A stretch of 64,000 nt of DNA from the IMG/VR virus record IMGVR_UViG_638275558_000001, positions 65,909 through 129,908 of that record; one strand, written 5' to 3'. Each line of letters begins with the position of its first letter. The first letter of the stretch is position 1. Source of the DNA: a virus. Taxonomy: Duplodnaviria; Caudoviricetes. The notes under the pieces were generated by a model. That model worked only from the letters and a program-made list of their open reading frames with translations. It was not told the origin of the DNA and did not search any database. Shown piece by piece: positions 24,385 to 33,237 of this stretch. A program made the position numbers and the translations under genes.

Positions 24385-25701
24385 TTATTTAAATAACCCC
24401 TTTTCAATTCTCTCCGTTAGAAGCTTCTTTTCCGACTTTTGCATTTTCTCTTCGTCGCCGTCAAGGCGGGCAAAAAACCAACTTTTATCATGATAATCCA
24501 TAAGTCGAAGAGCGAACCTTTTGCGAAACTCTCCGGGGTTTTCTTCCGGAGAAACCTGTTCGGAAATCTCTTTATAAATCGTATCAAAAGATGACTCAAG
24601 CTGATTTCGCATATCGGTATAAATTTCTTTGAGTTTCATCACGGTTTCCTGTTCATCCGGGGTAAGTACAAAATCATCAAGTTTGTTTTCAAGAAAAAGA
24701 TCGGCGAGCTTCTCAGGAGTGATTGTAGTTTTAATCCGGTGGAGCTCCAGATATACCGGGTGCTTGATCTTTGTGCGGTAATAAACACGCGGGGCAATTT
24801 CCTGTACGGCTACAAATCCTTCATATACCACCTCATAACCGTCTCTCAGGCTTTTGAAAAGCGGTGTAACTTCCTCAAATAGTTCCTGAAGGCGATTGGC
24901 ACGAAAAAGAGTATAGTTTTGCTCTTGAGACAGAACAGCCGGTAGCTTAAGATTTATTTTTCCGCCACTTTCGTTGAAAATGCGTACGGCTTCTTCGGAG
25001 GGACCCACCTCGAAATATCCCTTCTCCGGATCCACCGAACGCACACCGATCAGAATGATATTTGGCTCCTCATAAGGAACCACCACTCGCGCGTCCGGAT
25101 GAACCATTTCAAATATGTAACAGTATGAGGAGTTCAAATGATAGAGAAGGTAAGGCGGATATTTCTTTTCAAAGGTTTCCCAGAACAATTCTCGATATGT
25201 TTTATCCATATGAGTGGTAACCATTCCGTTTTTGACAATGGATCCATTTGCGTCAATACTCCCAAGAGTGTGAATTTTCCACCCTTCATCATAATATAAA
25301 ACCACACAAGTACCATCCAGCTTTTCAACCAGTTTCATGGGAAGTTTGAACATGAAACCGGCTTTGCGCTTTTCATTCAGGGGAGACGCGTAACGAAGCG
25401 TCTGATAATAGTTTACGATTTCCGGCTGGAGTTCTTCCCCCCAGTTGAAAAATTTGTCAAAGGGATAAGACAGAACTTTCCAACCACTATCCGTTTTGCG
25501 GAGAATCGCCCCGCGACAGGCAAGGTGATATATCTTATCAAACTTACAACCAAGGTGATATTTGAACATGTATAGATCACCCCGGTTTTTGCACATAATC
25601 CCCTCCTTGCGAAGGGATTCGACGGCTACTTCCGGAGACTCAAAAGAGTTCAGGTGTTCGATAAGGTACTCAACCGGGTATTTTACGTTCATCGATTCCA
25701 T
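24385..25701 (-). CDS. rnlA: RNA ligase 1 (T4 Rnl1 family)
   Basis: CRG, PFDKFFN, EKLDG (motif I), EGFV (motif IV) and KIK (motif V). Confidence 0.95.
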   Translation of the reverse strand: MESMNVKYPVEYLIEHLNSFESPEVAVESLRKEGIMCKNRGDLYMFKYHLGCKFDKIYHLACRGAILRKTDSGWKVLSYPFDKFFNWGEELQPEIVNYYQTLRYASPLNEKRKAGFMFKLPMKLVEKLDGTCVVLYYDEGWKIHTLGSIDANGSIVKNGMVTTHMDKTYRELFWETFEKKYPPYLLYHLNSSYCYIFEMVHPDARVVVPYEEPNIILIGVRSVDPEKGYFEVGPSEEAVRIFNESGGKINLKLPAVLSQEQNYTLFRANRLQELFEEVTPLFKSLRDGYEVVYEGFVAVQEIAPRVYYRTKIKHPVYLELHRIKTTITPEKLADLFLENKLDDFVLTPDEQETVMKLKEIYTDMRNQLESSFDTIYKEISEQVSPEENPGEFRKRFALRLMDYHDKSWFFARLDGDEEKMQKSEKKLLTERIEKGLFK

Positions 25702-25797: not shown

Positions 25798-27765
25798 TCA
25801 CACACCTCCTTCGTAAATCTGTTTACGGGAATTGGTTACAAGTTTTTCAGCTACGCGCAACATTTTGTTACTCCACTTTTCAACCGGGGTTTCCACAAGG
25901 AAATGACCAATACGGGTATCAAACCGGTTGAAGCCCACATTGTTGCGCTGAGCCGCGCGGTCTTTATCCAGCGCCGCCACGATCGCCAGCTTCTGCTGAA
26001 GCTCCAGCGCATAACCCCGCTCTTCCTCCGAAATGGTTTTACTTTCTTCTTCCTCCTCCCGCTGCTGCTTCTGCTCAGACGTAGTAATCACATCGAGCAG
26101 AGATACAGGCTTCTCAAGTTGAGTCTTCATACGCTCATGATTGAGTGCCTTTTCGATAATTTCAATCTTGCGCGTCAGGTAATCGGCAAAGTTTTCATCC
26201 AGCGTATGACGCGCAACAATGTAGTGAATATCCACACATTCGGCTTCCTGACCAATGCGGTGGAGACGATCTTCCGCCTGCAGGATATTGCCGGGTACCC
26301 AGTCCAATTCCACAAACACGGCGGTCTTAGCACGCGTCAGCGTAATGCCGACACCAGCCGCCAGAATGCTGCAGAGCACCACGTCCACCTTACCACTCTG
26401 AAAATCCTCCACCGCCTTTTGACGCTGCACCACATTTTCCTCGCCGGTAATGCGGGCGTAGGTAATACCTTTAGCTTCAAGCACCTTCTGAATGATCTCG
26501 AACACATCATGATGGTGTGCAAACACAACCAACCCGTCCACTTCTTCCTCTTTCACAAGAGAAACAATATAGTCAGCAGCGAACGGGGCTTTGTGAATGG
26601 CATAAAAGCGCCGCATTTCTGCAACGCGCTCAAACATAACCTTCATTTTTTCATCAAACTCCGCCATTGCCTCAGCCAGATCAGCGCTTTCAACCCCAAC
26701 CCGCTCAAACTCGCGGAGAACGGAAATATAATTTTTGAGATTCTGGAGATCTTCAGCCAGCTTGAAAATTTCTTCTTCAGCAAACATCTTATTAAGTTTT
26801 ACAGGAACGATTTTACGGCTTTTCGGCGGAAGCTCCTTGAGCACATCTTTTTTCAAGCGACGAATCATGATAGTGGAGCGAAGCTTTCCCTGAAGTTCTT
26901 CAAGGTTACTTGCACCACGAAAATCCCAACCATACCCATTATAGTAAGCGTTGCAATACCGCTTGGCGTAGCCCCAGAAATTACCAAACACCTTCGGAGC
27001 CGCCATCTCAAGAATGGGATAAAGCTCAATCGGTCTATTGACGATAGGAGTACCGGTAAGAAAGAGCACCTTCCCGCCCTGTTCTATGGAAGATTTGACA
27101 ATAGATTTTACAAACCCGGAGCGCTTCGTCTTCGGGTTTTTGATATAATGGCATTCGTCTACGATCACAAGATCGTAAGCATAATCCTCTTCCGAAATGC
27201 GGTGGAGAATGTCATAATTGATAATGTAAATGGTGTTTTTCAGAGAAAAATCGACTTCATTGCCGTTAACCACAATAATTTCTTTTTCGTGAACCACCCA
27301 GCGCTTCAATTCCCGCTCCCAGTTGTACTTCAGAGAAGCGGGACACACTACCAGCACGCGATCGGGGTTCATTACATTGATAACCCCGGCGCTCTGAATT
27401 GTTTTTCCGGTACCCATTTCGTCTGCAATGAGAGCACCCGGATATTCTTTAAAAACTTCGGTAACAAAATGCACCCCCGCCTTCTGAAATGGGAAATAAT
27501 CATATCCGGTAGGTGCAGGTACGGCAAAATCGCTGCTGGTGACGCTGCTGAGCTCGAGCTTGTGATTTTTTTCTTCCAGGAGAAGGTTGTACTGCTGAGC
27601 AGCCTTTTCGTCGAAATAACCTTTCAGTTTACTCGCATAATCGAGAATTGTCGTATACCATACCCTCTTATCCGGATCCCACTTCCACCCGGCATTTTTG
27701 GGGATCAGACGTTCTTCGTAGGTTCCTTTCCACTCGAACCGGTTGTTGTAAGTAACGTAGCCCAT
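25798..27765 (-). CDS. SNF2-family (HARP/SMARCAL1-like) helicase (start revised)
   Basis: ADEMGTGKT, DECH, LTGTP, RRLK and QAEDRLHRIGQ motifs; the track's start overlaps the early promoter. Confidence 0.9.
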   Translation of the reverse strand: MGYVTYNNRFEWKGTYEERLIPKNAGWKWDPDKRVWYTTILDYASKLKGYFDEKAAQQYNLLLEEKNHKLELSSVTSSDFAVPAPTGYDYFPFQKAGVHFVTEVFKEYPGALIADEMGTGKTIQSAGVINVMNPDRVLVVCPASLKYNWERELKRWVVHEKEIIVVNGNEVDFSLKNTIYIINYDILHRISEEDYAYDLVIVDECHYIKNPKTKRSGFVKSIVKSSIEQGGKVLFLTGTPIVNRPIELYPILEMAAPKVFGNFWGYAKRYCNAYYNGYGWDFRGASNLEELQGKLRSTIMIRRLKKDVLKELPPKSRKIVPVKLNKMFAEEEIFKLAEDLQNLKNYISVLREFERVGVESADLAEAMAEFDEKMKVMFERVAEMRRFYAIHKAPFAADYIVSLVKEEEVDGLVVFAHHHDVFEIIQKVLEAKGITYARITGEENVVQRQKAVEDFQSGKVDVVLCSILAAGVGITLTRAKTAVFVELDWVPGNILQAEDRLHRIGQEAECVDIHYIVARHTLDENFADYLTRKIEIIEKALNHERMKTQLEKPVSLLDVITTSEQKQQREEEEESKTISEEERGYALELQQKLAIVAALDKDRAAQRNNVGFNRFDTRIGHFLVETPVEKWSNKMLRVAEKLVTNSRKQIYEGGV

Positions 27766-27798
27766 GACCGCCCTGTCTTTGGCTGTCAATCTGCTGAT

Positions 27799-27827
27799 AA
27801 TATACGACACTGAACAAGAAAAGTCAA
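27799..27827 (-). promoter_or_regulatory. Sigma70-like early promoter
   Basis: TTGACT-17nt-TATATT followed by ATCAGCAGATTGA. Confidence 0.85.
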
Positions 27828-27847: not shown

Positions 27848-29641
27848 TTAGAAGGGAAACGAAAGTTGAACAAACAGGTGATTGAAATGCTTCCGATAGC
27901 GCGTCGGAAGATCAAAGGTGTCGTGGATAAACTTTTCAAATTCATCTTTTTCACCCTCTAAAACATCATCAAGCCATAGTCTTCGACGTTCAAGGCTCCC
28001 AATAATCGCCTCAATCGGATATGCTTCTATAAAAGCATTACCGGGATAATCATCTACAACACTCCTCACAACTTCTTCAATGTTTGTTGTATCTATCAAT
28101 CCCCTTTCCGTATAATACACTATATGTGGTTCTTCGTTTGATCCGTAATCTGATTCTAAGTATACTATAACTTCATATTCTACTATATCTTTAACATACT
28201 CGATAATACTTTCTATTCCACTTTCAACCATTTCCTCTACTTTCTCCCCCCACTCTTCATCAAAATGATCTAAAATATCATCCGAGTTGATTATTTTTTC
28301 TATAAGATCATAGTTTACATTTTCAGGTTTAATTGTGCTGTAAAAATATTCAAAACAGCCGGTTGTCGACATATTTTTATAAAGAGAAGCAACTACATCG
28401 GGATATGCTTCGTGTTCCGCCCATTTACCAATATGTTGTTTGAAAAGAAAATAGGCGATACGATAAGAACCTCTGTTGGCTCTCCTTTTTTCTATATCTT
28501 CTGGCAACTCTATATTAAGATATTCATGAAGGTCTTTAATACCCTCCGCTTCCCCCATATGATCAATTGCGATATCTACAAATTGTCTTATGAGATCGAC
28601 AACCACCGAAAGATTGATATATTCCTCGAATTTATTCTTCTGATAAAGCACAAATACCTGCAGGGTTTCAGCGGGAATATAAACAGTATCATAATTATAA
28701 GCGAGGACGCTCCTTACACTGTCTAAAGCCATATTAATATAATATTCGATTGCATCTTCTGAAGGTGCAAGATTTTCTACCAGATGGGGATATTTTTCAG
28801 CAATCACATCCAGCATCCGCGCCGCATAAGTAGCATAGGGTTCTTCGTCAATCGGTACCATTGTATTATCAGGAAGGTGAAATTCCTTTCCCTTACCAAA
28901 TGTAGCGATTGCGTAAACAAGTCCGTCATACGGATTGCTACTATCGGCTTCGAAATCTATTCCCGGTTTGATCGCCGAAGGATGAAATACCCCCACGAAC
29001 AAGGGATAATAATAGTTGAAATGTTGATCGCCAAGTCCCACACACACATGAATATGATTACCAATCATCCCGAGAATACGTCTGTTTTCCACCACATTTT
29101 GGGGGTGATATATGATCATAGAATTGTCTTCGTAGATAATCAAATCCGCATATTCTGTGTGCATAAGCTGACGAAACTTCTCCCACAATGCCAGATAAGA
29201 AGCCCCCACCTCTTCCACTTTTCCGGCGCGTTGATATGCCCCAACGACTTTTCCGGGATCGAGAAGCTGAAGGTTATCCGTAAGATCAAATTCCCTCAAA
29301 ACGGAGGGTTGGTGTCGCACCGAAAAATACCAGCGAAATGGCTCGATGTAAAGAGGGAGATCGATCGGATCGATTTTGTCGCTCATCACCATACGATAAA
29401 AATATTCAACCAGCGCATTTGTCGAGATAAGGTTATATTCGGGATTGTTGCGAAGCGGCTCAAAAATAGACTGAGCAACTTTGTGAAGAATATTTCCAAA
29501 AAATAAAATACGCTCCCCCGGATCACGGGGAACTTCTCCAAGATTTAATTGCTGAGCCAGAAACCTGAGTTTGTTTTCGGGAAGTTTTGCAAGTAGTTCT
29601 TTACCCCTACGGGACCCCGGAGCAGGAAAAGTAAACGCCAT
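27848..29641 (-). CDS. Hypothetical protein, paralog of 36373-37986
   Basis: 597 aa; late motif upstream; shares the I(Y/F)xP...C...YYP block. Confidence 0.7.
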   Translation of the reverse strand: MAFTFPAPGSRRGKELLAKLPENKLRFLAQQLNLGEVPRDPGERILFFGNILHKVAQSIFEPLRNNPEYNLISTNALVEYFYRMVMSDKIDPIDLPLYIEPFRWYFSVRHQPSVLREFDLTDNLQLLDPGKVVGAYQRAGKVEEVGASYLALWEKFRQLMHTEYADLIIYEDNSMIIYHPQNVVENRRILGMIGNHIHVCVGLGDQHFNYYYPLFVGVFHPSAIKPGIDFEADSSNPYDGLVYAIATFGKGKEFHLPDNTMVPIDEEPYATYAARMLDVIAEKYPHLVENLAPSEDAIEYYINMALDSVRSVLAYNYDTVYIPAETLQVFVLYQKNKFEEYINLSVVVDLIRQFVDIAIDHMGEAEGIKDLHEYLNIELPEDIEKRRANRGSYRIAYFLFKQHIGKWAEHEAYPDVVASLYKNMSTTGCFEYFYSTIKPENVNYDLIEKIINSDDILDHFDEEWGEKVEEMVESGIESIIEYVKDIVEYEVIVYLESDYGSNEEPHIVYYTERGLIDTTNIEEVVRSVVDDYPGNAFIEAYPIEAIIGSLERRRLWLDDVLEGEKDEFEKFIHDTFDLPTRYRKHFNHLFVQLSFPF

Positions 29642-29658: not shown

Positions 29659-30429
29659 CTACGCCCCAAAATCCACATAAAGATAGCAAATTTTCCAGCT
29701 ATCCTCCATCGAGATAGTATATTTTTTATCCCCCTCTTTTTTAATCTGATAATCTTCCTTACCGACATAATGTAAAAATTGCCTTATAAGTTGCCACAAC
29801 CTATCATATTCCTCCGTTTCATCAGTGCAAGCCAGCTTGTACTGATAATCAACGAAGGACATATCGTTTATTTCATCATAAAAATTGTCATTGCCCCCCA
29901 CAATGATAACTTCTGGATCAAATACAACCCATTCGATAAAATCAAGCATAAACTGGCTTAATTCCGGATTTTTAAGAATATAACGCCAGTTCCAGCGCGA
30001 TTCATGATCACATCGATCAAGCCTTTCTATCACCTTATAATCTTCATTATATCTGGCAAGTAGAAAACGTCTCATTTCGGCAACGTTCATATCGTAGCTC
30101 AGATTATCTGAAATATCGTTCAACATCTCCCGAAGTGCGTCTATAAAGAGACGCTTGATAGGCTCGCGTTCAAACATCAATTCTACAAACTTCACAACCA
30201 CACAATCCAGTTCTCTATGATTTTTCAGATAAGCGTCAATGTATATATCCGACGCCGCGTTGGCAATCAGATAGCACATCTTAGCCAGCGGCGTTTTGCA
30301 GACAAAAAATTCCCACCCGAAATCGCAAGGGTAAAAATCCTCCTTCACCTTATCAGGATAACGGCTGATAAGGATGGAGTGGGAAGACGATGAATTTGTG
30401 GAAAGACCGAAACGAATGAATGCTTTCAT
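29659..30429 (-). CDS. TNSSS-motif protein
   Basis: N-terminal IRFGLSTNSSSSHS; also FGWE, DHES and GGNDN motifs. Confidence 0.75.
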   Translation of the reverse strand: MKAFIRFGLSTNSSSSHSILISRYPDKVKEDFYPCDFGWEFFVCKTPLAKMCYLIANAASDIYIDAYLKNHRELDCVVVKFVELMFEREPIKRLFIDALREMLNDISDNLSYDMNVAEMRRFLLARYNEDYKVIERLDRCDHESRWNWRYILKNPELSQFMLDFIEWVVFDPEVIIVGGNDNFYDEINDMSFVDYQYKLACTDETEEYDRLWQLIRQFLHYVGKEDYQIKKEGDKKYTISMEDSWKICYLYVDFGA

Positions 30430-30638
30430 GACTTCCTCCTTTGTTTGTCAATGGTTACATAGACAACGTAAAAAACAACGGTAAGAATAAAAAGAAGTAA
30501 AAACTTTATGTTCAACCAGAAGGGATTCTCTCCTCTTAGCACCAGCGCTGCAGGGTTTCTCAAGTATAATGAAAGATAAACCAAATACAGCGCAAGCGCC
30601 AGCGAAATAGAGCCTATCAGTATTTTGAACACTTTCAT
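30426..30638 (-). CDS. Small two-TM membrane protein
   Basis: 70 aa with two hydrophobic helices; ATGA-type overlaps on both sides. Confidence 0.7.
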   Translation of the reverse strand: MKVFKILIGSISLALALYLVYLSLYLRNPAALVLRGENPFWLNIKFLLLFILTVVFYVVYVTIDKQRRKS

Positions 30639-31474
30639 AGTTTTTTCCAGATGTTGAGAAAAGTTACCGGATCGAACAGTTTTTCCCTCGACACCCTGAA
30701 ACCCTTTTCTTTCAAATAGGATCCCGGAGCAACAAGTGCTTCCGGCTCACTCATGTCGATGTAGCAGGAAAAAAGTCCTTCCTGATCGGTAGTGCTATGT
30801 GGAAATTCTCTTTTGAACACCGGGTAAGTTTTAACAAAAAGGGAATCCACCGAAATGGTGAGTTCTTTCATAAAATACTTCACCGCTTCCAGTGTCTTGT
30901 TTTCTGGAATTGGTATGTTATTATAAGTTTCTCCCCTCCCCACTTTCTTAAAACCAAGTAGCAGAAGATGGCTCCCCTCTACCTGAGAAAGCATTTGCAT
31001 CATTTCAATGGTTTCTTCAAAGGGAACGCTCCCCCATACGTGCTGAGCCACCAGTTGCACATTGGGGGGCTTCTGATTCAGAAGATCGATATACGACTCC
31101 ACCGATTTCAAACCATGCACGCTGAAACCTATCCCAAAAAGCCGATTCGGAAAATAATGCCGGTAGAACTTCATAAGCTTTCGGGCAAACGAAGCATTGA
31201 AGGTGGTTACGTTAACATAACCCCGGCTGAACGTTTTGACAATGCGATATAACTCTTCCAGAAATCTCCCCTTCCAGAAAAAGCAGGGGTCTCCACCCCC
31301 TATGCTGAGTTCGTAGGTACCCATTTCGTTTAACATTCGTGCGAACCGGATCATGTCACCCGGATCACACTCTGATCCCTCCGGGGTGGAGTTTTCATAA
31401 CAGAAAGCACACCCAAAATTACACACGTTGGAGGGTTTGACATCAACGATATGCGGCACCTGAGTCTTAAACAT
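30635..31474 (-). CDS. Radical SAM enzyme
   Basis: CNFGCAFC (CxxxCxxC), GGGDP motif, NVTT; no Cys-rich SPASM tail. Confidence 0.9.
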   Translation of the reverse strand: MFKTQVPHIVDVKPSNVCNFGCAFCYENSTPEGSECDPGDMIRFARMLNEMGTYELSIGGGDPCFFWKGRFLEELYRIVKTFSRGYVNVTTFNASFARKLMKFYRHYFPNRLFGIGFSVHGLKSVESYIDLLNQKPPNVQLVAQHVWGSVPFEETIEMMQMLSQVEGSHLLLLGFKKVGRGETYNNIPIPENKTLEAVKYFMKELTISVDSLFVKTYPVFKREFPHSTTDQEGLFSCYIDMSEPEALVAPGSYLKEKGFRVSREKLFDPVTFLNIWKKL

Positions 31475-31598: not shown

Positions 31599-32042
31599 TT
31601 ACTTCAAAAACGATACATATGATTCAAAGGTCTTTGATTTTCGGAATTTCTTCACAAACTGCTCAAGGGCTTCGTAAACGTCGGGGCGAACCAAGTTCTT
31701 CTCCTTCGTGAACACCACCCGCCTTGACTCCCAGTCAACCCCGAAGTTAAAAAAGTTATTAAGGCTGACACAAAGCGAAGTGAGGGGAAACTCATATATT
31801 TTTACAATTTCCCCATTTCTGTCTATAAGCACCGAATAATATCCTCTAAAAGCGTCGCACAGGTTGCGCACAGTCTCCAGAAAATCCGAAACCGGCGCAA
31901 AGTCTTCAAGCACATAGCAGGTTAGTTGAACGGCTTTTTCTTCATTCAGGTGCGTTACGGAATACATTACCGGCTTGACTACCATACTTCCTCCGTTTTT
32001 TTGACCGGAAAACCGAATCAAAACACCAGAGTTCCATTCCAC
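31599..32042 (-). CDS. Hypothetical protein
   Basis: 147 aa upstream of the radical SAM gene; start uncertain. Confidence 0.55.
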   Translation of the reverse strand: MEWNSGVLIRFSGQKNGGSMVVKPVMYSVTHLNEEKAVQLTCYVLEDFAPVSDFLETVRNLCDAFRGYYSVLIDRNGEIVKIYEFPLTSLCVSLNNFFNFGVDWESRRVVFTKEKNLVRPDVYEALEQFVKKFRKSKTFESYVSFLK

Positions 32043-32151: not shown

Positions 32152-33237
32152 ATGCCGAACTTCATTACAAACATCAGGAATTCCCGTTTTAAGGAAGTTC
32201 TGACCGAAATGTACCATTGCCATCACGAAAGCGAGTACCACCTTGAGGGAAATGTTTTAAATCACACGCTTATGGTATTGCAGGTGGTAGATAAGATAAC
32301 CGCTGATCACCGGGAGCAAACTAATCTATCCTTAACCGCCCTTCTTCATGATAGTGGGAAACCCTATACCCGTGTTGTCGAAAGGGGAAGAGTAATGTTC
32401 CCCGGTCATGAAGGGGTGTCTACGTATATCGCTCCTCTTCTGCTGTGTGAAGTATTGAGGGATTCCCTCATCACACCAAAAGACGCCATTCAAATCCTTT
32501 ACGGCGTCAATTACCATATGTTGCACTGGAAAAATCCAAACCTTTTTATGCGGCTTTTCACCGAAATGGTTAATTATACCTGTTTATATAACTTCTTGAA
32601 AAAATTCAATCAGTGTGATCTAAAGGGTAGGGTTTCTACAAAACCCCAAAAGCAGGAATTCCCCGTAATCCATTATTTTGAGAATACCCCGATCGGTACT
32701 GTTGAGCGCCATGTTTATTTTATGATCGGGGTTCCGGGGAGTGGAAAGAGCACGTTTCTTCAGAAAGTTGGAGAGGGGGCGATTGTATCCCGTGATGAAA
32801 TCATGATGGAATACGCCGCTGAAATAGGGATCACAGGAGACTACAATACTGTTTTCCGGGAGATTCACAACAACCCTATGCATAAAACCAAGGTCAACAA
32901 CCGCTACATGAACGCTTTCCGTAAGGCGGTTGAAGAGAATGAAAAGGTATTTGTAGACGCAACCAACATGAGTTATAAGAGCCGGAGACGTTTTTACAAT
33001 GCGCTTCGGCGGGATATTGCGGAAACCGTGGGTTACCATTATATCGTAATGCTTCCCGATTATTTTACGTGCATTGAACGCGCCGAAAATCGGGAAGGAA
33101 AGTCGATTTCAAGGGAAGTGGTAACCGATATTGCGCGGAGTCTGCTTCTTCCGTGCAGGGAACATCCCAACAGCATTGATACGACAATTTATATGTCTGA
33201 TGGGCATGATGAACATGTGTTGAGAGTAGCTTGGTAG
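32152..33237 (+). CDS. pnk: Polynucleotide kinase with N-terminal HD phosphohydrolase domain
   Basis: YHLEG...HT...LLHDSGK...H HD domain; P-loop GVPGSGKST, SRD, DATN and RAENR. Confidence 0.92.
   Translation: MPNFITNIRNSRFKEVLTEMYHCHHESEYHLEGNVLNHTLMVLQVVDKITADHREQTNLSLTALLHDSGKPYTRVVERGRVMFPGHEGVSTYIAPLLLCEVLRDSLITPKDAIQILYGVNYHMLHWKNPNLFMRLFTEMVNYTCLYNFLKKFNQCDLKGRVSTKPQKQEFPVIHYFENTPIGTVERHVYFMIGVPGSGKSTFLQKVGEGAIVSRDEIMMEYAAEIGITGDYNTVFREIHNNPMHKTKVNNRYMNAFRKAVEENEKVFVDATNMSYKSRRRFYNALRRDIAETVGYHYIVMLPDYFTCIERAENREGKSISREVVTDIARSLLLPCREHPNSIDTTIYMSDGHDEHVLRVAW

Follow-up and report, generated by a model that had tools for sequence, protein, structure and literature searches.

Strong evidence from sequence comparisons indicates that the radical SAM (rSAM) protein and the TNSSS protein encoded in one operon of this phage DNA are the separated and re-ordered halves of a widespread two-domain phage family, and the evidence is likewise strong that the two proteins constitute one functional unit. 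The window, by which we mean the whole 64,000-nucleotide stretch analysed here, carries three minus-strand ORFs in the order rSAM, 70-aa protein, TNSSS protein, flanked by the other genes given below.

24385..25701, minus strand: Rnl1-like RNA ligase (phrog_562, E 6.4e-56); context, with a possible link to RNA repair
27848..29641, minus strand: ORF for a 597-aa protein, the next gene downstream in the block; context only
29659..30429, minus strand: ORF for the TNSSS protein, 256 aa, the N-terminal half of the fused family
30426..30638, minus strand: ORF for the 70-aa protein with two hydrophobic segments, overlapping both neighbours by ATGA
30635..31474, minus strand: ORF for the rSAM protein, 279 aa, first gene of the operon; a stand-alone counterpart of the C-terminal half of the fusions
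31599..32042, minus strand: ORF for a 147-aa protein upstream of the rSAM gene, found at the same position in locus L056; context only
32152..33237, plus strand: HD phosphohydrolase plus P-loop kinase, polynucleotide-kinase-like (Pfam HD and AAA_33), divergent from the operon

The three genes are coupled through two 4-nt stop/start overlaps, as the earlier note had stated; both overlaps have the sequence ATGA. The TNSSS start is immediately preceded by AGGAGG on its 5' side, and the rSAM start by GAGG. Around the operon, the 597-aa downstream protein gave zero Pfam or NCBIfam matches and the 147-aa upstream protein no family match in Pfam or PHROG, while the divergently encoded kinase-like protein matches phrog_6931 (E 3.9e-127) and phrog_505 'polynucleotide kinase' (E 5e-11).

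The family set comprises 135 clusters at 50% identity, and in 104 of the 135 cluster representatives related to the TNSSS protein the TNSSS domain is followed by the rSAM domain in a single chain of ~430-560 aa, compact fused members having 436-442 aa. An HMM of the N half of the fusions matches only the TNSSS ORF in the 129,908-bp genome (E 1.5e-33), and an HMM of the rSAM half only the rSAM ORF (E 4.1e-48); since each half-HMM matches exactly one ORF of the genome, the pairing is more than chance. The window differs from the fusions: in place of one polypeptide it encodes two, their order is inverted so that the rSAM gene comes first, and the 70-aa gene lies in between. Such a split arrangement is in the minority among the relatives. 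Among 47 viral loci, 36 encode a fusion, four a fusion with an extra rSAM piece, and three a split version with adjacent genes; at locus L015 the N ORF was recovered by a motif scan, which brings the loci with both parts to 44 of 47, and in the other three the N-domain occurs with no rSAM detected within the sequence examined. The earlier note had suggested that RxGxxTNSSSxHS proteins recur beside rSAM genes in large phages and had proposed counting this co-occurrence with an HMM; the linkage is indeed present and is stronger than was claimed, with 40 of the 47 viral loci fused and four more split.

Among cultured phages, Salmonella phage Arash encodes a fusion of 476 aa (gp146c), in Microcystis phage Ma-LMM01 the N part (gp130) lies two genes from the rSAM part (gp128), in Thermus phage phiYS40 gene 162, with a degenerate motif, overlaps the rSAM gene 161, and in the Lak megaphage Lak-B7 the rSAM gene is followed by four motif-bearing genes. 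The family extends over phages of Salmonella, Thermus, Microcystis and Prevotella, and further members come from contigs ascribed to many phyla of bacteria and archaea. The cellular contexts vary: one locus (L063) is a prophage, and two others (L075 and L071) are small islands amid housekeeping genes. SprT-like genes occur near L064 and L073. The fused-family gene carries inteins and homing-endonuclease insertions. All-against-all clustering of the 1,187 ORFs of the 47 viral loci recovered, besides the gene itself, no family in more than five loci, and a full-text literature search, as far as it reached, found nothing on the fused serine-loop/rSAM family.

It could be argued that the three genes are mere neighbours, the rSAM and TNSSS proteins acting independently and the overlaps reflecting compact phage gene packing. 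Overlaps of 4 nt are frequent in phage operons, a close relative of the window on a 4.7-kb contig (L054) has a different gene directly 5' of its TNSSS gene, and the N-domain stands without a detected rSAM in the three viral loci mentioned above. However, both halves are homologous to the halves of one fused family, and the linkage persists across phages of unrelated hosts; the existence of the fusions contradicts independence, which we regard as extremely improbable. It is also unlikely that the fusions are artefacts of assembly or gene calling, as they are seen in 104 cluster representatives and in a cultured phage.

The TNSSS protein contains IRFGLSTNSSSSHS as well as the FGWE, DHES and GGNDN motifs, all of which the earlier note had picked out, and these coincide with invariant or near-invariant columns of the family. 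Conservation was assessed in an alignment of 34 stand-alone N-domain proteins (A1) and in one of 140 sequences (A2). Across the family N12, S13, S15, H17 and W39 are invariant, and all are kept in the TNSSS protein of the window; R6, G8, S14, S18, G38, F42, K50, Y53, D141, H142, S144 and G178-N182 are at least 90% conserved. The conserved loop lies close to the N-terminus, the motif asparagine being residue 13 in 69 of the 135 representatives and falling within residues 8-22 in 122. The principal elements are placed as follows.

30373..30417, minus strand: IRFGLSTNSSSSHSI, residues 5-19, with the serine loop preceded by a short strand at the N-terminus; N12, S13, S15 and H17 are invariant in the 140 sequences
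29998..30009, minus strand: DHxS motif, D141-H142-E143-S144; D141, H142 and S144 are invariant in A1 and at least 90% conserved in A2
29884..29898, minus strand: GGNDN motif, G178-G179-N180-D181-N182, following a β-strand (E174-178) in the model; invariant in A1, at least 90% conserved in A2
29671..29757, minus strand: residues 225-253, a predicted three-stranded β-sheet (strands E227-231, E236-241 and E247-251; low confidence, with the TNSSS protein modelled alone)

Relative to compact members of the family the TNSSS protein has an extra helical insertion (~residues 60-135) and a longer tail. Its AlphaFold2 model has a pLDDT of 76.9, and the serine loop is of low confidence both here and in the model of a fusion (P0005). 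Judged by the consensus of the 140 sequences, the sheet of residues 225-253 is probably the counterpart of the hairpin region immediately ahead of the rSAM core in the fusions, and it may serve as a docking surface for the rSAM protein.

As the earlier note had indicated, proteins of this type lack an assigned function: the TNSSS protein has no match in Pfam, PHROGs or NCBIfam, and the same holds for the N-domain of the fused family, which is also without a structural match. A scan of all 34 stand-alone members against Pfam (E <= 5) gave no family in more than one member, tblastn of the phage collection with the TNSSS protein gave no match, and single-sequence pattern scans of viral contigs gave none for either the rSAM or the TNSSS protein. 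With the TNSSS model as query, the best value was E 1.1 in Foldseek against the PDB and Z 3.2 in VIA-align against 48,161 chains, and a BFVD search returned only an identical protein, an rSAM fusion of 461 aa (E 5e-3) and an uncharacterised protein of 182 aa. The profile of the 34 stand-alone N-domains reached at best E 0.078 against PDB sequences, to an acyl-CoA dehydrogenase that we judged to be noise, and the ESM Atlas gave unnamed viral clusters only, with nothing named that was usable for the N-domain of P0005. Several enzyme families were considered and set aside. The GGND motif recalls block III of the SGNH/GDSL hydrolases, yet the order of motifs differs; the spacing of polar motifs is like that of PIN domains, but the first acidic residue is alanine in most members; both lack fold or profile support, as do PP-loop ATPases, 2H phosphoesterases, the alkaline-phosphatase/sulfatase group, and pyruvoyl or Ntn self-processing proteins. 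These likenesses were dropped.

The rSAM protein exceeds the gathering threshold of Pfam PF04055 (37.8 bits, E 2.7e-9; threshold 29.5) and matches phrog_16999 'Fe-S oxidoreductase' at E 3.6e-122. Its cluster motif maps as follows.

31400..31423, minus strand: CxxxCxxC motif, C18-x3-C22-x2-C25, for the [4Fe-4S]/SAM cluster; cysteines invariant in the 92-sequence alignment A4

The SAM-binding glycines G59, G60 and G61, a GGE-like motif after the second strand, are likewise invariant and are followed by D/E-P, the window protein having GGGDP where the consensus has GGGEP. Outside the cluster motif the protein has just three cysteines, C36, C64 and C237, none of which is conserved in the 92-sequence family alignment; as no conserved cysteine occurs beyond the cluster motif, the protein has no SPASM/twitch cysteine set, in agreement with its earlier description as a compact rSAM enzyme without a SPASM tail. 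Its closest non-self relatives are fusions of 457-487 aa, and it is 27% identical to residues 177-336 of P0005 (BLASTP E 1e-21). The rSAM protein also falls outside the characterised families, among which NrdG and QueE had been singled out in advance as possible homes for it: the top NCBIfam match reaches 23.4 bits where the cut-off is 650. The scores are 12.5 bits for NrdG (cut-off 126.1), 19.2 for viperin (cut-off 450), 17.8 for prokaryotic viperin (cut-off 180) and 17-22.1 for MoaA (cut-offs 231-325), and no QueE model reaches E 1; assignments to NrdG, QueE, viperin or MoaA were accordingly rejected, the scores being far under the cut-offs. By sequence the closest solved proteins are viperins, in a weak match (E 0.003) confined to the cluster region (first ~90 residues).

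The model of the fused homologue P0005 (pLDDT 86.2, pTM 0.86) places the rSAM half among enzymes of the partial TIM-barrel fold; P0005, not the window protein, matches more than 30 solved rSAM enzymes at Z 13-19. The best matches are the RiPP maturases SkfB (Z 19.3, rmsd 3.1, 258 aligned) and SuiB (Z 19.2, rmsd 3.7, 277 aligned), with viperin, BlsE and MoaA at Z ~15, ~4 Z units lower, and a profile search likewise recovered SkfB (E 5e-10) and SuiB (E 7.5e-10), at 13-14% sequence identity. This Z margin may stem from extra flanking elements rather than from a common type of substrate. The SkfB and SuiB alignments begin at residue 139-141 of P0005, in the hairpin sheet before the rSAM core, where the strands at residues 143-170, probably equivalent to the C-terminal sheet of the TNSSS protein, have a pLDDT of 74-88. 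The least confident part of the model is the invariant loop (residues 14-24, pLDDT <50).

Comparison with known systems gives several partial likenesses. SkfB and SuiB, which have an N-terminal peptide-binding domain, offer the working analogy of an rSAM enzyme binding a strand of peptide and altering the stretch next to it; the three-stranded sheet before the core aligns with their N-terminal part, though there is no Pfam match to RRE/PqqD here. In contrast to these enzymes, the C-terminal region of the family lacks conserved cysteines and hence auxiliary clusters, and the presumed client is a folded 150-250-aa domain, mostly fused, rather than a short precursor peptide. The anSME/AtsB enzymes are rSAM proteins that turn an N-terminal-proximal serine or cysteine of a folded client enzyme into a catalytic residue, and P0005 matches them in fold at Z 13.6-13.9. 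However, anSME requires SPASM clusters, which are absent here, the TNSSS protein lacks the (C/S)x(P/A)xR motif of anSME clients, and no sulfatase family was matched in Pfam; the fold searches of the TNSSS model gave no match strong enough (best Foldseek E 1.1, VIA-align Z 3.2) to speak for or against a sulfatase fold. The glycyl-radical activases, such as PflA and NrdG, are small rSAM enzymes that likewise lack auxiliary clusters; their target is a finger loop of the client, and a single activase can serve several clients. A glycine loop of the RVxG[YFW] type is absent from the TNSSS protein, its R-x-G (residues 6-8) being spaced differently; the conserved loop here is N-terminal and serine-rich instead, and G8 is replaced by serine in three of four Lak paralogues. 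Viperin and MoaA, which act on NTPs, share the fold at Z ~15, but differ in that their NCBIfam scores fall far below the cut-offs and in that the sequence match of viperin is limited to the ~90 cluster-binding residues. In another phage module, the rSAM plus DUF483 pair of Thermus phages phiMa and Cumys, an rSAM is likewise linked to a functionally uncharacterised protein; fusions are cited there as evidence of coupling and the authors suggest an unknown DNA modification (bioRxiv 10.1101/2024.08.14.607894). DUF483 had no match in the operon proteins or the scanned family members, and phiMa and Cumys were absent from the tblastn matches of the window rSAM.

In four split loci several proteins share the N-terminal ~20 residues, with four such proteins in L006 and two each in L043, L051 and L056. 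Three of the four motif proteins of Lak-B7 lack FGW, DHxS and GNDN. The extra paralogue of L056, a close relative of the window, is identical to the window TNSSS protein in 19 of its first 20 residues and only ~30% identical overall, and has lost FGW, DHxS and GNDN alike. One rSAM with several clients sharing a short tag is the pattern of a maturase or activase. In loci of the Lak/Ma-LMM01 type it is the rSAM protein that carries the hairpin sheet, which is missing from the motif proteins, an arrangement that resembles a peptide-binding element with separate clients.

The 70-aa protein was described from the outset as a membrane protein, and its Kyte-Doolittle profile agrees with this: the 19-residue mean has maxima of 2.24 over residues 6-24 and 2.43 over residues 46-64, which fits two predicted membrane spans. 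It has no Pfam, PHROG or NCBIfam match. A 74-aa homologue at the same position occurs in L056 only, phmmer gave no match in the ORFs of 100 other loci, and the split loci L008, L030, L043 and L062 have no small gene between the N and rSAM parts. Judged by this distribution, it is probably a lineage-specific passenger that is co-translated with, and lies outside, the conserved unit, so that its earlier inclusion in that unit does not stand. Translational coupling at both ends and retention of its position in L056 would favour a working third component, for instance a membrane anchor of the complex. Given its absence from all other split or fused loci examined and the want of any family match, we consider such a role unlikely.

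What the unit does is best approached through its serine loop. We favour, tentatively and at somewhat less than an even prospect, a reading in which the rSAM enzyme acts on the serine loop of its TNSSS partner. We infer the following course of docking and chemistry. The TNSSS protein would dock on the rSAM enzyme through its C-terminal three-stranded sheet, and its N-terminal finger, consisting of the short strand and the invariant N-S-S-S-x-H-S loop, would be presented to the rSAM active site. The enzyme would then cleave SAM reductively, and the 5'-deoxyadenosyl radical would take hydrogen from a residue of the loop, most likely an invariant serine. The outcome might be a post-translational change or a protein radical needed by the rest of the N-domain, which appears to have a pocket-like invariant set of its own (W39, K50, Y53, D141-H142-x-S144 and GGNDN). 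As there is no auxiliary cluster and no conserved hydrogen-donor cysteine, anSME-type oxidation and epimerisation by the known route are not directly supported. The evidence for the loop as substrate is moderate. In its favour are the motif-only paralogues, the fold similarity to SkfB and SuiB, and the low confidence of an invariant loop within an otherwise confident model, which is expected if its shape depends on the site of a partner. Low pLDDT would be equally expected for a loop that is ordered only upon ligand binding. A maturase fused to its sole client would act a single time in each molecule, a wasteful arrangement, and fusion is more typical of multi-domain enzymes working on a common external substrate; the motif-only paralogues, moreover, are limited to four loci. 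On balance the evidence leans mildly towards the loop as a substrate rather than a part of a partner enzyme.

The principal alternative is that the two halves make up a composite enzyme acting on an external substrate such as a nucleotide, phage DNA or tRNA. The N-domain would be a second catalytic or substrate-binding domain, with the serine loop, DHxS and GGNDN forming a phosphate or metal site, and the rSAM half would carry out its radical chemistry on that same substrate; this is possible, and we place it distinctly below even. Fusion is the dominant architecture (104 of 135 representatives), and it is the pattern of multi-domain rSAM enzymes such as Elp3, MiaB and TYW1. The invariant residues R, N, S, S, H, K, Y, D, H, S, N, D and N resemble a polar ligand-binding site, and the NTP-acting viperins are the nearest solved proteins by sequence, albeit through the weak match limited to the cluster region. 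Inteins and homing endonucleases are typical of conserved genes of nucleic-acid metabolism. A sub-lead within this alternative would give the enzyme a part in repairing or modifying RNA or tRNA: the Rnl1-like RNA ligase and the HD/PNK-like kinase flank the operon of the window, and a survey of the 256 ORFs that lie no more than 4 kb away and encode 150 aa or more, at 40 dereplicated viral loci, found an RNA ligase directly adjoining the gene at two loci (L019, L021), a PNK-like gene at three (L017, L020, L033) and a Thg1-like tRNA-His guanylyltransferase at one (L031). In Arash an RNA ligase is three genes off, and in Ma-LMM01 a HisRS-like gene adjoins gp130. However, the association with RNA repair, at 6 of 40 loci, is a raw count among genes that share the early nucleotide-metabolism region of large phages, and no neighbouring family is conserved, the next-best cluster being present in 5 of 47 loci. 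The phosphoesterase, SGNH, PIN and PP-loop versions of such an enzyme find no fold or family match, and a composite enzyme leaves unexplained the paralogues that keep only the N-terminal 20 residues and have lost the other motifs.

A RiPP-like pathway would treat the N-terminus as a recognition or core peptide that is modified and cleaved to a small diffusible product, with the remainder as carrier. The nearest folds, SkfB and SuiB, are RiPP maturases, and several tag-sharing genes lie beside one rSAM gene in Lak-B7, L043 and L056. Against this, the surveyed viral loci have no recurrent protease or transporter nearby, the supposed carrier has invariant motifs of its own and is mostly fused to the enzyme, and the conserved piece, lying at the very N-terminus, is invariant, not variable; such a pathway seems very unlikely. 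The suggestion in the earlier note that the pair makes a nucleotide analogue or an anti-defence metabolite found no echo in the data, nothing having emerged that points there. Returning to the serine loop as substrate, a more far-reaching version, which we think decidedly unlikely, is that the family represents a new class of protein-radical or protein-derived-cofactor enzymes, in which the rSAM, as an activase either built in or encoded separately, would repeatedly produce a radical or a modified residue on the N-terminal serine-loop finger and the pocket of the N-domain (W39, Y53, K50, DHxS and GGNDN) would then use the radical or modified residue for catalysis. Such enzymes would parallel the glycyl radical enzymes while differing from them in radical site and fold and in having the activase fused, and if this were true the megaphages would have several clients per activase.

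The window offers a natural two-protein version of what is usually a single-chain enzyme, in which the rSAM protein and its partner can be mixed, omitted and mutated separately. Inteins and homing endonucleases target the family gene, something often seen with phage genes that are conserved and important. The family is common, yet its N-domain is without a curated family or structural relative, and the literature, as far as the searches reach, has nothing on it. The reaction, once found, would add either a new rSAM-made protein modification or cofactor, or a new phage activity on nucleotides or RNA.

The radical SAM (rSAM) enzyme, a small membrane protein and the serine-loop (TNSSS) protein of the window are encoded head to tail, in that order, on one strand; an ATGA at both junctions overlaps the stop with the next start by 4 bases, and purine-rich ribosome-binding sequences lie 5' of the starts:

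30635..31474, minus strand: rSAM protein, 279 aa (ORF; PF04055)
30426..30638, minus strand: protein with two hydrophobic stretches, 70 aa (ORF; hydropathy)
29659..30429, minus strand: TNSSS protein, 256 aa (ORF; motifs)

The three-gene operon described in the earlier note is real, in its minus-strand ORFs, its two ATGA overlaps and the motifs of the TNSSS protein, which starts MKAFIRFGLSTNSSSSHS and contains FGWE, DHES and GGNDN. The source virus record (129,908 bp) is rated complete, the window being its second half. The rSAM protein matches Pfam PF04055 at 37.8 bits (cut-off 29.5), with C18, C22 and C25 as cluster cysteines. None of its only three further cysteines is conserved in the family alignment, and it therefore has no SPASM or twitch cluster site, which bears out the earlier description of a compact enzyme without a SPASM tail.

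The TNSSS protein has no match in Pfam, PHROG or NCBIfam, or by tblastn of a phage collection. A word-indexed search with it recovered four close relatives and P0005, a fused protein of 442 aa whose first ~125 residues share two aligned blocks with the TNSSS protein (IRYGYATNSSSSHS...DFGWE and DHQS...GGNDN), and whose residues 177-336 align to the window rSAM with 27% identity (E 1e-21). When 1.84 billion cluster representatives were searched exhaustively with phmmer, 135 proteins were recovered at E <= 0.001. HMMs of the two parts of the fused members detected both parts in 104 of these, a partly circular result in that the HMMs were built from that set, and the N-terminal part alone in 31, which span 65-270 aa and some of which may be fragments; a plain pattern search, as an independent check, found CxxxCxxC more than 120 residues into the chain in 97 of the 135. 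The linkage of TNSSS proteins to rSAM genes put forward in the earlier note is correct. In the window's genome each family HMM matches a single ORF (E 1.5e-33 for the N-domain, 4.1e-48 for the rSAM), and the nearest homologues of the window rSAM outside its close relatives are fusions of 457-487 aa. The rSAM half corresponds to phrog_16999, labelled "Fe-S oxidoreductase", and no model for the N-domain is present in the versions of Pfam, NCBIfam and PHROGs searched. The two proteins belong, in split form, to a large and uncharacterised phage family that combines an rSAM enzyme with a serine-loop domain. A full-text literature search returned no title or abstract opening concerned with this family or its motif; a phage rSAM module described in bioRxiv 10.1101/2024.08.14.607894 differs in being linked to DUF483, of which no match was found here.

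A degenerate-pattern scan of viral contigs produced 47 loci. In these and the other loci ORFs were called by a crude longest-ORF rule, which failed in several high-GC loci.

Arrangement of the family genes in viral loci
36 of 47: one fused gene
4 of 47: fused gene and a further rSAM piece (L017, L025, L027, L044)
3 of 47: split, adjacent genes (L008 and L030, N gene then rSAM; L043, rSAM then two N genes)
1 of 47: split, after adding the motif scan (L015)
3 of 47: N gene alone within the contig DNA examined (L009, L016, L051)

No other gene family travels with the family gene, the next-best neighbour cluster occurring in 5 of the 47 loci. Among cultured phages, Salmonella phage Arash encodes a 476-aa fusion (gp146c, annotated "methyltransferase"), and Microcystis phage Ma-LMM01 a 165-aa N-domain protein (gp130) two genes from the rSAM gp128. 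Gene 162 of Thermus phage phiYS40, with the degenerate starting motif MTNSSSAS, overlaps the rSAM gene 161, and in Prevotella phage Lak-B7 the rSAM gene is directly followed by four genes starting MK[IV]Q[IV]R..VFETNSSSTH. Vibrio phage D479 (L003, 3788-4993) has a weak rSAM homologue (21.8% identity) with the N-terminal hairpin region and no serine-loop domain; since its cluster spacing differs and its C-terminus is cysteine-rich, it probably belongs, judging by sequence, to a different, SPASM-type family. Selfish elements also target the family gene: intein/Hint and LAGLIDADG domains lie within the rSAM part of P0106 (870 aa) and P0137 (664 aa), listed with P0039 among such members, and one stand-alone member also has an intein match. 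An HNH endonuclease gene (L027:5255-6214) and an unannotated 324-aa ORF (L017:8946-9920) each lie between two pieces of a family gene.

A scan of prokaryotes with one genome per species gave 27 family loci (L057-L083), mostly fused, on contigs assigned to many phyla; another 26 loci that matched only the generic rSAM pattern were left out. L063 is clearly a prophage, and three of the 27 (L061, L064, L067) are fused-gene copies on megabase-scale contigs (1.2-3.5 Mb) of one Myxococcales MAG. One of these copies adjoins DUF169 and a gene for a class-V aminotransferase (cysteine-desulfurase-like), and SprT-like genes occur close to this copy and to L073. In the isolate genome of Deinococcus lacus (L075, 7983-9461), RelA/SpoT and LepA enclose a small island of unannotated ORFs that includes the family gene; the serine-loop motif is downstream of where the rSAM starts and in another frame, suggesting either the rSAM-first order of the window or a frameshift.

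The N-domain is distinguished by five residues invariant in 140 aligned sequences (N12, S13, S15, H17 and W39) and by others at least 90% conserved in the same set (R6, G8, S14, S18, G38, F42, K50, Y53, D141, H142, S144 and G178-G179-N180-D181-N182). The spacing between the motif and the N-terminus is fixed: the Asn is residue 13 in 69 and within residues 8-22 in 122 of the 135 representatives. In the AlphaFold2 model of the window TNSSS protein (pLDDT 76.9), a helical bundle makes up most of the structure, accompanied by three short strands, and confidence is low at the N-terminal 17 residues and the C-terminal sheet; fold searches with this model recovered no structural relative in PDB or BFVD. 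The model of fused P0005 is confident (pLDDT 86.2, pTM 0.86) and shows an N-terminal strand (2-7) and a three-stranded sheet (143-170) immediately N-terminal to the rSAM core, its one conspicuous weak spot being the invariant loop (residues 14-24, pLDDT <50). The window TNSSS protein spans everything up to the core, sheet included, and the window rSAM begins exactly at the core start, PHIVDVKPSNVC, matching the consensus PELVDxKITDxC, whereas Lak and Ma-LMM01 types are split on the other side, with the hairpin region on their rSAM protein.

No curated family claims the window rSAM, its best NCBIfam score being 23.4 bits against a cut-off of 650, and fused members behave likewise. NrdG, which the earlier note had named as a possible alternative home, scored far below its NCBIfam cut-off, as did viperin and MoaA. 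In structure the fused model is nearest to SkfB (Z 19.3) and SuiB (Z 19.2), with alignments starting at the hairpin sheet, followed by viperins, BlsE, MoaA, EpeE, PqqE and anSME (Z 13.6-15.5). Profile searches of PDB sequences likewise gave SkfB (E 5e-10) and SuiB (E 7.5e-10) as best, viperins next. On this evidence the enzyme falls within the broad clade that comprises SPASM/twitch-type, MoaA-like and viperin-like rSAMs; it leans mildly to the peptide-modifying members, whose auxiliary clusters it lacks.

Two main readings compete: the serine loop may be the substrate of the rSAM, or it may belong to a two-domain enzyme whose substrate is external. Four split loci encode two or more proteins that carry the N-terminal motif (four in L006, two each in L043, L051 and L056). 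Of the four tandem motif genes of Lak-B7 (L006, 2896-5878), only the third (187 aa) has FGW, DH and GNDN; the other three proteins (100, 166 and 221 aa) have only the first ~20 residues in common. L056, a close relative of the window whose TNSSS gene is a 99% match over the available part, has an extra 224-aa gene between the membrane protein and TNSSS genes; its product shares 19 of the first 20 residues with the window TNSSS protein, with ~30% identity overall, and lacks all three other motifs. Different proteins beside one rSAM, with a short N-terminal tag under strong selection, are as expected of a maturase or activase with multiple clients. Because of this shared tag, the resemblance in fold and the floppiness of the invariant loop, we tentatively prefer, at somewhat less than even confidence, the reading that the serine loop is the substrate. 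Homology and linkage are shown; every step of a mechanism that goes further is inferred. Clues to the chemistry, such as an auxiliary cluster or a conserved hydrogen-donor cysteine, are absent from the rSAM, and a motif search found neither the anSME client motif nor the glycyl-radical motif in the TNSSS protein.

Most family members are fusions, and joining a maturase to only one client would be uneconomical. A composite enzyme, with the invariant polar residues as a ligand site, accounts for fusion more simply, but leaves the motif-only paralogues unexplained; we rate it as only slightly less likely than the substrate reading. Genomic context offers it one lead, as the window operon sits between two genes that look, by sequence, like an RNA-repair pair:

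24385..25701, minus strand: Rnl1-like RNA ligase (phrog_562, E 6.4e-56)
32152..33237, plus strand: HD phosphohydrolase fused to PNK-like P-loop kinase (phrog_6931, E 3.9e-127)

A scan of 40 dereplicated viral loci covered 256 neighbouring ORFs, each 150 aa or longer and no more than 4 kb from the family gene. An RNA ligase directly adjoins that gene in L019 and L021, and a PNK-like gene does so in L017, L020 and L033, while in L031 the neighbour is a Thg1-like tRNA-His guanylyltransferase; in Arash an RNA ligase is three genes off, and in Ma-LMM01 a HisRS-like gene adjoins gp130. By raw count, such neighbours thus occur in 6 of 40 loci and three named phages. Most other annotated neighbours are ordinary replication or nucleotide-metabolism genes (thymidylate synthase, helicases, polymerases, methyltransferases, homing endonucleases). 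NAD-salvage genes (nicotinamide phosphoribosyltransferase, ribose-phosphate pyrophosphokinase, a phosphatase, NAD synthetase) adjoin family genes at L051:9038-12561 and L027:8633-9853, and in L051 a second motif-only paralogue directly follows them.

The 70-aa membrane protein, whose hydrophobic stretches have mean Kyte-Doolittle values of 2.24 and 2.43 over 19 residues, is co-translated with its neighbours, and in L056 a 74-aa homologue occupies the corresponding place. A search of the ORFs of 100 other loci recovered none, and other split loci have no small gene between the two parts; we treat it as a lineage-specific passenger and consider its participation unlikely. In L054, another close relative, with no rSAM on its 4.7-kb contig, the TNSSS gene is directly preceded by a different gene, a 277-aa ORF (L054:1-834). 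The C-terminus of its product resembles by eye that of the 597-aa protein encoded downstream of the operon in the window, and the two may be paralogues.

Known families cover little of the window phage: of 57 further ORFs (at least 90 aa), only 10 have a PHROG match at E <= 1e-8, namely DNA polymerase, primase, RNA ligase, head protease, thymidylate synthase, ATPase, HNH endonuclease, major head protein and two unknowns. The SNF2 helicase gene (25798..27810, minus strand), which has strong Pfam and PHROG support, is overlapped along its whole length by an antisense open frame of 636 aa (25903-27813, plus strand); this frame is therefore probably a shadow ORF. Taken together, the rSAM and serine-loop protein are a good target for enzymology, and their natural two-gene form in the window is a convenient entry point.
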